From a virus (taxonomy: Duplodnaviria; Heunggongvirae; Uroviricota; Caudoviricetes), in the IMG/VR virus record IMGVR_UViG_2740892230_000005: a DNA stretch of 7,590 nucleotides; one strand, written 5' to 3'. Shown piece by piece: positions 1 through 3,000 of the stretch. The position numbers were made by a program. Position 1 is the first letter of the stretch. Each line of letters begins with the position of its first letter.

Positions 1-3000
1 CGTGATCCTGCTGGACTTTATGCGCCGGGAATTAAACCTGTCTAACTCATCAGTGCTTGGAGCCTGTCAGAAGCTTCAGGAGGCTGTTGGCTTACCGAAT
101 CTGGCACCGCNNNNNNNNNNAAAAGCGAGTTGCAAATTAGCAACTCGGTAACGGAATTGAGCAACACCCTAAATTTGGGTATTACCTCGTTAAAGATACT
201 GTATTTATGAACAGTGTATCCTTGATAACTATTAAAAATCGCAGTAAGTTCATCTTGCATCAACGAAAAGGGAGTGCAGTCCCGAAATTTGTGGAGAAAC
301 CAATGAATCAGTTGCTTGTAATTGATGGCGTTTCTGTGCGCCAGTACTTTGAATCTAACTACTGTCTTAACGACCTTCAGAAAGCTGCTCTTCTTGCCGC
401 TGGTGAGAATCGCTCCTCCCGTTCGCTGGAAGTTCACGAGTTTATGCGTCGTCCTGAAACGAAGGCTCTTGTGGAATTACTGGAAGAAGAAACTACGGGA
501 GATTCCCGTAGTATTCCTGTCATCACCATTCAGGGGCGCAATGGTGGGACGTATGTCTGTAAAGAGCTGGTCTATGCATATGCAATGTGGATCAGCCCGG
601 CATTCAGCTTAAAAGTGATACGTACTTTTGATGCGCTTCATAATTCATCACCAGAAGAAACCACATCCGACAAAATTAAATCCGGGGTCATTCTGCTTGA
701 ATCAGCAGCAAAGACTCTAAATCTGTCAAACTCCTCGAAACTTGGTGCATACCAGAAATTATCAAAGGTAGCAGGTCTTCCTGAACTTATGCCGAGCTAT
801 GCCATTGATGCACCTGCTGATGCGCCAGATGGTTCAAGCCGCCCGACACTGTCACTGAGTGCACTGCTGAAACAGTATGGTATACGCCTGACGGCTAATC
901 AGGCATATCACCAGATGGNNNNNNNNNNCGTCATTCCATCTGAAGGTGATCCGTACTTTCGATATGGTAACCAGCGCACCGGAAAAATTATCCGGGCAGG
1001 CTGCTGACAAGATGCAGGCTGGAGTGATTCTGCTGGACTTTATGCGCAGGGAGTTAAACCTGTCTAACTCTTCAGTGCTTGGTGCCTGTCAGAAACTCCA
1101 GGAGGCTGTTGGCTTACCGAATCTGGCACCGCGCTATGCCATTGATGCTCCTGCTGACGCGCCTGATGGCTCAAGTCGCCCTACGCTGTCGCTGAGTGCA
1201 CTGCTGAAACAGTATGGTATCCGCCTGACGGCTAATCAGGCATATCACCAGATGGTGAAACTGGGGATCGTCGAGCAGCGCGAACGATACAGCCGTACCG
1301 CGATTAACAACATCAAAAAATTCTGGTCGCTGACNNNNNNNNNNTACGGCTAATCAGGCATATCACCAGATGGCGAAGCTGGGGATCGTTGAACAACGCG
1401 AACGATACAGCCGTACCTCGATTAACAACATCAAAAAATTCTGGTCGCTGACAGCGAAAGGCTGCATGTTCGGCAAGAACATCACCAGTCCCGCAAATCC
1501 GCGCGAGACGCAGCCGCATTTCTTCGAATCCCGATTCCCTGAGCTGTTAAAGCTGCTCGATACCGTTCATTGAGGTGACCGTGAGAGCACTACTGACCCC
1601 TGAAATTGCCCCGCGTATGGGGATCGTATTGTTCAGGCCAGGTTCAGAGCTGATGCCCCTGTTTATGCAGGGGCGTGTCCTGCTGGAGCCTGAGCCGGAA
1701 CGTTATTCATCTTTCGCCAGTGGTGCCGTTCCGGCGGCATCACAACCGCTGGCGGATGATCCTGCCGTTCGGGCTGTGTTCCGCAATGAGGCAGTGATCC
1801 GTCGTGCTGGTGGCGTGGAATGTCTTGAAAGCTGGTTACTTCGTGAAAAAGGCTGCCAGTGGCCTCATTCCGACTGGCACAGCGAGAACATGACCACAAT
1901 GCGGCACGCTCCGGGAGCAATTCGTCTGTGCTGGCACTGCGATAACCAGCTGCGTGACCAGTTCACGGAACGGCTGGAATCAATGGCAACGGNNNNNNNN
2001 NNACACGCGCCGGGCGCAATCCGTCTGTGCTGGCACTGTGATAACCAGCTGCGCGATCAGTTCACGGAACGGCTGGAATCAATGGCAACGGATAACTGTG
2101 CCCGCTGGGTGTTGTCTGTTGTGCGTCGGGATCTCGGTTTTGATGACAGTCACGTTGTGACAATGCCGGAACTGTGCTGGTGGCTGATTCGTAATGACCT
2201 GGCGGATGCCTTACCGGAAAGTGCAGCCCGTAAGGCACTGAGATTACCGAAGCCTGTTGTGCCGTCTGTCACCCGGGAAAGTGACCTTGTGCCTTCGGTT
2301 CCTGCCACCAGCATCATCCAGGATAAAGCGAAAAAGGTGCTGGCGCTGAAAGTGGATCCGGAGTCGCCGGAGTCTTTTATGTTACGCCCAAAACGTCGCC
2401 GCTGGGTTAATGAAAAGTACACGCGCTGGGTTAAGACGCAGCCGTGCGCATGTTGTGGAAAGCCAGCTGATGATCCCCACCACCTGATAGGCCACGGTCA
2501 GGGTGGAATGGGTACAAAAGCGCATGATCNNNNNNNNNNTTGCGCGTGTTGTGGTAAGCCAGCCGACGATCCACATCACCTGATTGGCCATGGTCAGGGT
2601 GGAATGGGTACAAAAGCGCATGACCTTTTTGTGTTGCCTTTGTGCAGAAAACACCATGACGAACTGCATGCGGATACCGTGGCATTTGAAGAGAAGTATG
2701 GCTCTCAGCTGGAGCTGATATTTCGTTTTATCGATCGCGCGCTGGCGATTGGTGTGCTGTCCTGATTTTGTGGAGAAAGTTGATGCGTGATATTCAGATG
2801 GTTCTTGAACGCTGGGGGGCATGGGCGGCAAGTGGTAACACCGGGGTGGACTATTCTCCGATCGCTGCCGGATTCAAAGGACTTTTACCATCTGCCACTA
2901 AACCACGTCCGGCCTGCTGCGATGATGACGGACTTATCATTGAAAACTGTCTTGCTCGTCTGAAGCAGAAAAAACCTGAGGAGTATTCGCTTCTCATTGC

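Follow-up and report, generated by a model that had tools for sequence, protein, structure and literature searches.

A predicted Ref-like zinc-stabilised HNH nuclease domain in a DUF968/YdfU-family protein from a scaffolded lambdoid prophage sequence

A zinc-finger HNH motif was noted in DUF968 proteins by Curtis et al. (2014, PMC4118853), who also described fusions of the domain to Erf, Rad52 and RusA. Together with DUF1364, and with YdfU and YbcO named, the family was placed in group 7 of the His-Me finger proteins, whose neighbouring genes include those for RusA, Q and antirepressors and for which a role as recombination or repair nucleases was proposed, like that of NinG and the RecA-dependent nucleases (Jablonska et al. 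2017, PMC5714182). The His-Me/HNH assignment of DUF968/YdfU is thus already known from these two studies, from Pfam and from PHROGs. The nearest characterised relatives by sequence and structure, Ref of phage P1 and Gp16 of Staphylococcus phage phiNM1, are active phage nucleases linked to RecA: Ref (PDB 3PLW) is built on a beta-beta-alpha core that binds two Zn2+ ions (PMC4330346), and Gp16 has been shown to nick plasmid DNA and to interact with RecA (NAR 2026, PMC12817073). Here we analyse a DUF968/YdfU-family gene in the IMG/VR virus record IMGVR_UViG_2740892230_000005 (Caudoviricetes), a stretch of 7,590 bases that we refer to in its entirety as the window, and in particular a cluster of cysteines and histidines encoded near the end of that gene.

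Our reading, to which we assign a probability of roughly 78%, is that a Ref-like HNH (His-Me finger) nuclease domain stabilised by zinc occupies the C-terminal ~75-95 residues of this YdfU/DUF968-family protein, an early lambdoid-prophage product with two domains, and that the cluster forms the catalytic core of that domain. The protein would most likely nick or cut DNA in a metal-dependent manner while the phage grows lytically. The gene is on the plus strand. As scaffolded it covers 1581..2765, with the GTG at 1581 as the start used in the database; the listing of open reading frames (ORFs) starts at the GTG at 1575. The raw translation of the ORF 1575..2765 has 396 amino acids, including two duplications that are artefacts of the assembly (see below), and the true product after their removal is 329-331 amino acids long. 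The de-duplicated protein of 331 amino acids is 99% identical to P0004, a 'DUF968 domain-containing protein' of 329 amino acids whose cluster holds 9520 member sequences, and residues (C256, H268 and so on) are numbered here as in P0004.

Membership of the family is clear from the Pfam DUF968 model (PF06147), which matches residues 162-328 over profile positions 2-171 of 171 with 271.7 bits against a gathering cut-off of 27.8 (E=3.5e-81). PHROG 96 ('HNH endonuclease') spans the full-length protein (E=1.6e-177), and the C-terminus is also matched by three more HNH PHROGs. The first-pass annotation, made from the sequence, had noted that the cluster resembles a zinc-stabilised His-Me finger and had called the protein a candidate nuclease, naming profile searches against HNH and His-Me families as a check. 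That check agrees: besides PHROG 96, the Pfam model HNHc_6 (PF16784, 'putative HNHc nuclease') scores just above its cut-off (26.9 bits, cut-off 26.6) at residues 253-310. The match covers profile positions 123-184 of 204 only and does not include the Orf/NinB-like N-terminal part of the model, so that the relationship to HNHc_6 is confined to the HNH module. For the P1 Ref model, RecA_dep_nuc (PF16786), the protein remained below the gathering cut-off, at 16.3 bits against 26.9. There was no match in NCBIfam, none to the PADLOC anti-phage defence models at E<=0.01, and none to the Pfam model of lambda NinG (PF05766) at E<=0.1.

Homology to an active nuclease module is seen in phiNM1 Gp16 (DQ530359, 8051-8722), to which BLASTP aligns the window's protein with 41% identity over 59 amino acids (E=2e-10). 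Gp16 is a strong member of HNHc_6 (E=4.9e-117) and also scores above the DUF968 cut-off; each of the two proteins matches the other's Pfam model. Their HNH modules are alike in the CxxC, the catalytic His and the CxxH-H-x3-H layout, and Gp16 residues C145/C148, H157, C181/H184, H185 and H189 align with C256/C259, H268, C290/H293, H294 and H298. The candidate nuclease assignment is therefore credible on the profile matches, the structural model described below and the homology to the Gp16 module.

The same positions are conserved within the family. We used an alignment of 26 curated full-length homologues, 25-52% identical to the query, in place of a motif regular-expression count over 148 representatives at 50% identity, which was uninformative since many of those sequences are frameshifted or chimeric fragments. 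C256 and D283 are conserved in all 26 homologues, H267, H268, C290, H294 and H298 in 23 each, and C259 in 22; position 293 is Cys in 14 and His in 8, and thus one or the other in 22 of the 26. The pattern, C-x2-C ... H-H ... D ... C-x2-[CH]-H-x3-H, is that of a standard zinc-finger HNH domain. Judged by these invariant or near-invariant Cys, His and Asp positions, together with the DUF968 match, the cluster is well beyond what chance would be expected to give.

The complete C-terminal HNH/His-Me finger domain, with the stop codon, is encoded at 2541..2765 on the plus strand. The predicted structural zinc ligands are C256 (2541-2543), C259 (2550-2552), C290 (2643-2645) and H293 (2652-2654), which can be read from the sequence as the pairs C256-x2-C259 and C290-x2-H293, with Cys and His alternating at position 293 among the homologues; the zinc would staple the beta-hairpin to the helix. 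The predicted active site comprises H267 (2574-2576), H268 (2577-2579), D283 (2622-2624), H294 (2655-2657) and H298 (2667-2669). H267 and H268 are on strand 1, H294 and H298 on the helix, and D283 is invariant at the 'N' position of the motif. In the mechanism that we propose, H268, at the end of strand 1, would be the general base, H267, H294 and H298 would be ligands of the catalytic divalent metal, and D283 would take the place of the motif's Asn. The substrate would probably be replication or recombination intermediates, and the ~230-residue N-terminal domain would supply targeting. From these likenesses we infer the activity, the substrate and the biological role of the protein. Its action may be RecA-directed, a dependence suggested by analogy with P1 Ref and phiNM1 Gp16.

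Four of the 26 homologues lack C259, and three of those lack C290 as well, while the histidines are kept in all four; such sequences look like a zinc-less variant of the HNH finger. A DUF968 subfamily consisting of P0173, P0182, P0195 and P0238 in the alignment and of the representatives P0214, P0220, P0229 and P0233 has C259 replaced (CVVTG), usually with C290 or position 293 replaced too, and retains HH, D283, H294 and H298.

Structure prediction had been proposed as a second check, with a lack of similarity to His-Me finger folds as the outcome that would tell against a nuclease. The result was the opposite. The 74-amino-acid C-terminal piece (2541-2762), modelled by AlphaFold2 with 48 homologues, has a mean predicted local distance difference test score (pLDDT) of 92.7 and a predicted template modelling score (pTM) of 0.78, with a strand at residues 10-13 of the piece (DPHH), a strand at 31-34 and a helix at 36-44 (RKHHDELHA), that is, a beta-beta-alpha fold. 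The full-length model has a pLDDT of 71.5; its N-terminus is disordered and a linker at ~196-240 is poorly predicted. The fold of the C-terminal piece bears directly on whether the cluster might be a classical C2H2-type zinc finger, or a chance grouping, in place of a His-Me finger. A phmmer search against PDB sequences does return eukaryotic C2H2 fingers, through CxxCGK...HLxGH...GxK, but at non-significant E-values of about 0.2 and covering half the motif, whereas the confident model shows two strands and then a helix at whose start the second ligand pair lies, and the Pfam and PHROG profile matches are to HNH families. We rejected the C2H2 assignment on the fold evidence and regard it as scarcely credible.

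The assembly of the window affects how the cluster is read. The window is a scaffold in which eight contigs are joined by seven runs of exactly 10 N (111-120, 919-928, 1335-1344, 1993-2002, 2530-2539, 3583-3592 and 7320-7329). At four junctions the contig ends overlap by about 75-110 bp with ~88-95% identity, differing at some 5-12% of positions; the overlap junctions relevant to the KilA-N/DUF968 region are those at 1335-1344, 1993-2002 and 2530-2539, and bases 1-110 are a repeat of 1024-1132. The pattern looks like that of a draft assembly in which several similar prophages were collapsed into short contigs that were then strung together. In the genes lying across junctions, those for the KilA-N protein and the DUF968 protein, stretches are artificially repeated in frame and the alleles of different prophages are mixed.

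Two of these artefacts fall in the DUF968 gene. The first, at 1993..2091, consists of the 10-N gap at 1993-2002 and an 89-bp repeat of 1904-1992 with 7 mismatches, and duplicates HAPGAIRLCWHCDNQLRDQFTERLESMAT. The second, at 2530..2625, is within the cluster itself and consists of the gap at 2530-2539 and an 86-bp repeat of 2444-2529 with 10 mismatches, duplicating CACCGKPADDPHHLIGHGQGGMGTKAHD. All mismatches in both overlaps are synonymous, and the raw ORF of 396 amino acids stays open because gap and overlap together amount to 99 and 96 bases, both multiples of three. As a consequence of the gap and repeat within the cluster, the CACCGK...TKAHD peptide is read twice, at 2445-2528 and, past the gap, at 2541-2624; the octapeptide CWHCDNQL is likewise read twice, at 1929-1952 and, across the gap at 1993-2002, at 2028-2051. 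Each is present once in the real protein. At 2445..2529 on the plus strand, where contig 5 ends, the HNH domain is first encoded as a truncated copy of its N-terminal half (residues C256 to D283). The cluster had originally been placed at 2446-2690. Its residues are indeed encoded there, on the plus strand and in the frame of the ORF 1575..2765, but the first copy of the peptide starts at 2445 and LCRKHHDELH ends at 2669.

A second allele of the 74-amino-acid HNH domain is found at 3594..3818 on the plus strand, at the start of contig 7, where it ends in ...GVLA and is followed by a different Q gene. It is identical to 2541-2755 at 195 of 215 nucleotides (91%), its translation differs at the last residue only, and it is from another prophage copy. 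From one breakpoint inside the DUF968 gene there are therefore two alternative continuations, one with an HNH allele and a short Q gene and the other with an HNH allele and a long Q gene, which means that the source genome carries at least two lambdoid prophages with a DUF968 gene.

The first-pass annotation had also counted the upstream CWHCDNQL as part of the finger, which is most likely wrong. The four predicted zinc ligands, C256, C259, C290 and H293, are local, as they are in Gp16, and the C-terminal piece folds confidently alone. CWHC is ~135 residues before the HNH finger, across the poorly predicted linker, in a separate N-terminal domain outside the Pfam DUF968 model, and a separate PHROG matches residues 2-133 only, the region that holds it. 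There it forms part of a Cys/His site encoded at 1854..1952 on the plus strand, made up of C92 (1854-1856), H100 (1878-1880), C117 (1929-1931) and C120 (1938-1940) and followed by D121. C92 and C117 are Cys in all 26 homologues, position 100 is His in 13 and Cys in 13, position 120 is His in 19 and Cys in 7, and D121 is Asp in 24, giving the pattern C92-x7-[H/C]100-x16-C117-x2-[C/H]120 and then a near-invariant Asp. In the full-length model a beta-hairpin (104-109 and 112-117) is followed by a helix (118-124), with C117 at the end of the hairpin and position 120 in the first turn of the helix. These positions look like a separate structural metal site.

For the N-terminal domain of ~230 residues we found no credible Pfam or PDB sequence match, and it is this domain, rather than the HNH finger, that is the part of the protein without prior description. 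One speculative possibility, which we consider doubtful, is that it would be a second, catalytically degenerate His-Me/treble-clef zinc module derived by internal duplication, which would target the active C-terminal HNH domain, perhaps to RecA-bound or branched DNA. An hhalign comparison of the N-domain and C-domain profiles did place C117/C120/D121 against C290/H293/H294, but the alignment is not significant (E=0.11, probability 0.5%). We accordingly did not accept the CWHC region as a diverged copy of the HNH finger, and internal duplication is a lead and not a result.

The genes around the DUF968 gene are those of a lambdoid early region. Upstream, at 207..1573 on the plus strand, is a KilA-N domain gene assembled from three overlapping contigs (gaps 919-928 and 1335-1344). 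Directly downstream, at 2768..3163 (+), is a late-gene antiterminator Q of the short type (Pfam Phage_antitermQ, E=1.6e-52), and downstream of the second allele, at 3832..4584 (+), is one of the long type, a YdfT/QuuQ-like protein of 250 amino acids with a DnaJ-zinc-finger (Pfam Antiterm, E=9.6e-54), so that the window holds both arrangements. In the complete relatives the DUF968 gene is always the last before a late-gene regulator, either a Q of one of two unrelated types or, in P1, Lpa. The order is RusA, KilA-N, DUF968 and long-type Q in an E. coli O25b:H4 prophage and in phage mEp460; YdfU and then YdfT/Q at the end of the series in K-12 Qin and phage Tritos; RusA, two genes and DUF968 in Edwardsiella phage EPP-1; replication genes, one small ORF, YdfU, short-type Q, a methylase, tRNAs and stx2AB in the Stx2a phage Stx2_95; and doc, pdcB and lpa in P1.

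The gene had been said to fit the NinG/Rap slot of the nin region, a description that is right only in a loose sense. It is a nin-region nuclease gene in the predicted sense, and the last early-region gene before Q, but it has no NinG match, and in several complete phage and prophage relatives RusA is encoded two or three genes upstream of it. Because DUF968 co-occurs with RusA in several phages, it is no straightforward substitute for a junction resolvase (Rap/RusA). The same map makes it very improbable that the domain belongs to a packaging-associated or homing HNH endonuclease, of the kind represented by HK97 gp74 or by intron- and intein-associated HNH genes: the gene is in an early, nin-like region upstream of Q and far from the terminase genes, its position is the same across many unrelated lambdoid phages, it interrupts no host gene, its product has a conserved N-terminal domain of ~230 amino acids, and in structure and sequence that product is most closely related to Ref, Gp16 and YbcO rather than to HNH proteins associated with terminases.

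In two records, LR595868.1 and KF030445.1, the DUF968 gene is annotated as 'antitermination protein Q'. Pfam gives no support for this name, which looks like a label carried over from the neighbouring gene.

Several observations weigh against an active Ref-like nuclease. The HNHc_6 score exceeds its cut-off by just 0.3 bits and reflects the C-terminal third of the model only. A Foldseek comparison of the full-length model with the PDB gave no significant match (best E=1.6), the plausible top matches being HNH proteins, and sequence and profile searches of the PDB were weak, with YbcO at E=0.024-1.2 and C2H2 zinc fingers at a similar level. Our literature search found no biochemical report on YdfU or on any enterobacterial DUF968 protein. 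In Gp16, the substitutions C148A, C181A and H184A did away with growth inhibition, H185A and H189A eased it in part, and H157A left it unrelieved (PMC12817073); with toxicity unrelieved in H157A, phenotypes in the family do not track simply with catalysis. Lastly, three of the 26 homologues, all distant and including P1 PdcB, retain the cysteines and lack HH, H294 and H298. They are probably inactive, if their sequences are a guide, and the loss of catalytic histidines from a scaffold that keeps its cysteines means that the scaffold can serve a non-catalytic purpose. PdcB (L003:2936-3979, between doc and lpa) is a full-length DUF968 homologue with ~26% identity that keeps the Cys/His positions of the N-terminal domain and, as CxxC...CxxC, the predicted zinc ligands, and that has lost the HH pair, H294 and H298. 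It is probably a catalytically dead member of the family. P1 pdcB is non-essential (PMC10695390). The persistence of the scaffold in PdcB after the loss of the catalytic histidines suggests an independent function for the N-terminal module.

It follows that the domain might have the HNH fold and yet act mainly as a non-catalytic zinc-finger module for binding DNA or protein, for example as a regulator or a RecA/SSB-binding factor by the late-gene switch, with nuclease activity vestigial. PdcB and the two other distant full-length homologues, which keep the Cys ligands and the N-terminal domain, would fit such a role, as would the invariable adjacency to a late regulator, the 'antitermination protein Q' labels, and the finding that mutants in the zinc finger of Gp16 abolish toxicity while those in the catalytic site do so only partly. 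We nevertheless consider it unlikely. The window's protein and 23 of the 26 diverse homologues keep every catalytic position (H267, H268, D283, H294 and H298), which is unexpected if catalysis is dispensable; Ref and Gp16, the characterised proteins most closely related to it, have nuclease activity; and the Q label is without Pfam support, with the real Q genes next door. We therefore prefer the catalytic HNH nuclease.

Other features of the window lie downstream of the Q genes. Segments of ~180 bp downstream of each Q region, at 3233-3411 and 5368-5546, have 87% mutual identity (154/176) and lead into paralogous small ORFs at 3286-3531 (81 amino acids) and 5490-5717 (75 amino acids), which have MxKQQDMTETA in common, end in QCQLILTQL, and have weak winged-helix-like Pfam matches only. 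The repeats and small ORFs may represent an element and a gene that are conserved close to the late promoter. An ORF of 141 amino acids at 4865-5290, situated between the long Q gene and a DNA methylase gene, carries a signal of the lipoprotein type (MKKVLIAAIGFCLVGC) and is unmatched in Pfam; it may belong to the cargo (moron) genes of the prophage. Downstream of the long Q gene come the methylase (5868-6920; Pfam N6_N4_Mtase, E=2.4e-42) and then a holin S of the P21 type (6987-7202), an order shared with mEp460 and the O25b:H4 prophage. Neither tRNA nor Rfam features were found in the window, whereas in the Stx phage of this layout the methylase is followed by tRNAs and stx2AB.

The family is very common in E. 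coli. The 5' part of the DUF968 gene matches 2433 of 5426 complete E. coli genomes (~45%), at up to 4 places per genome, often in several prophages, and in Stx-converting phages the gene is just upstream of Q and the toxin genes. If a nuclease were expressed from it early in induction, it could affect prophage recombination, mosaicism and damage to host DNA; as P1 Ref and phiNM1 Gp16 show, enzymes of this kind can make hosts more sensitive to DNA-damaging antibiotics or bring host replication to a halt. The only mildly new leads here are the conserved Cys/His site of the N-terminal domain and naturally 'dead' homologues such as PdcB.

Among known systems, YbcO (DLP12 and phage 82; DUF1364, PDB 3G27) belongs like DUF968 to His-Me group 7, with the common core G-x-G-T-K ... 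D-L ... C-x-x-C-H-D-E; unlike the window's protein, it is a single-domain protein of 96 amino acids and is without the first His of the HH pair. On the DLP12 map its gene, too, is in a nin region, where it adjoins rusA (PMC5714182). Lambda NinG/Rap (PF05766) is also a His-Me finger protein (group 24, PMC5714182) encoded in the nin region upstream of Q, as DUF968 proteins are, although the latter have no detectable match to the NinG model. Where the window's protein has a folded N-terminal domain, the RecA-dependent HNH endonuclease Ref of P1 has a basic tail that is disordered. In Gp16 the N-terminal domain is NinB/Orf-like, whereas the ~230-amino-acid domain described here is unrelated to it and has its own Cys/His site. 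The closest counterpart is YdfU of the K-12 Qin prophage, which shares both family and architecture with the window's protein, is 58% identical to it over the full length and near-identical over the last 90 residues, and is likewise encoded directly upstream of Q. The two are different alleles, with a diverged N-terminal domain and a linker 20 residues shorter in the window's protein, and there is no difference in kind between them.

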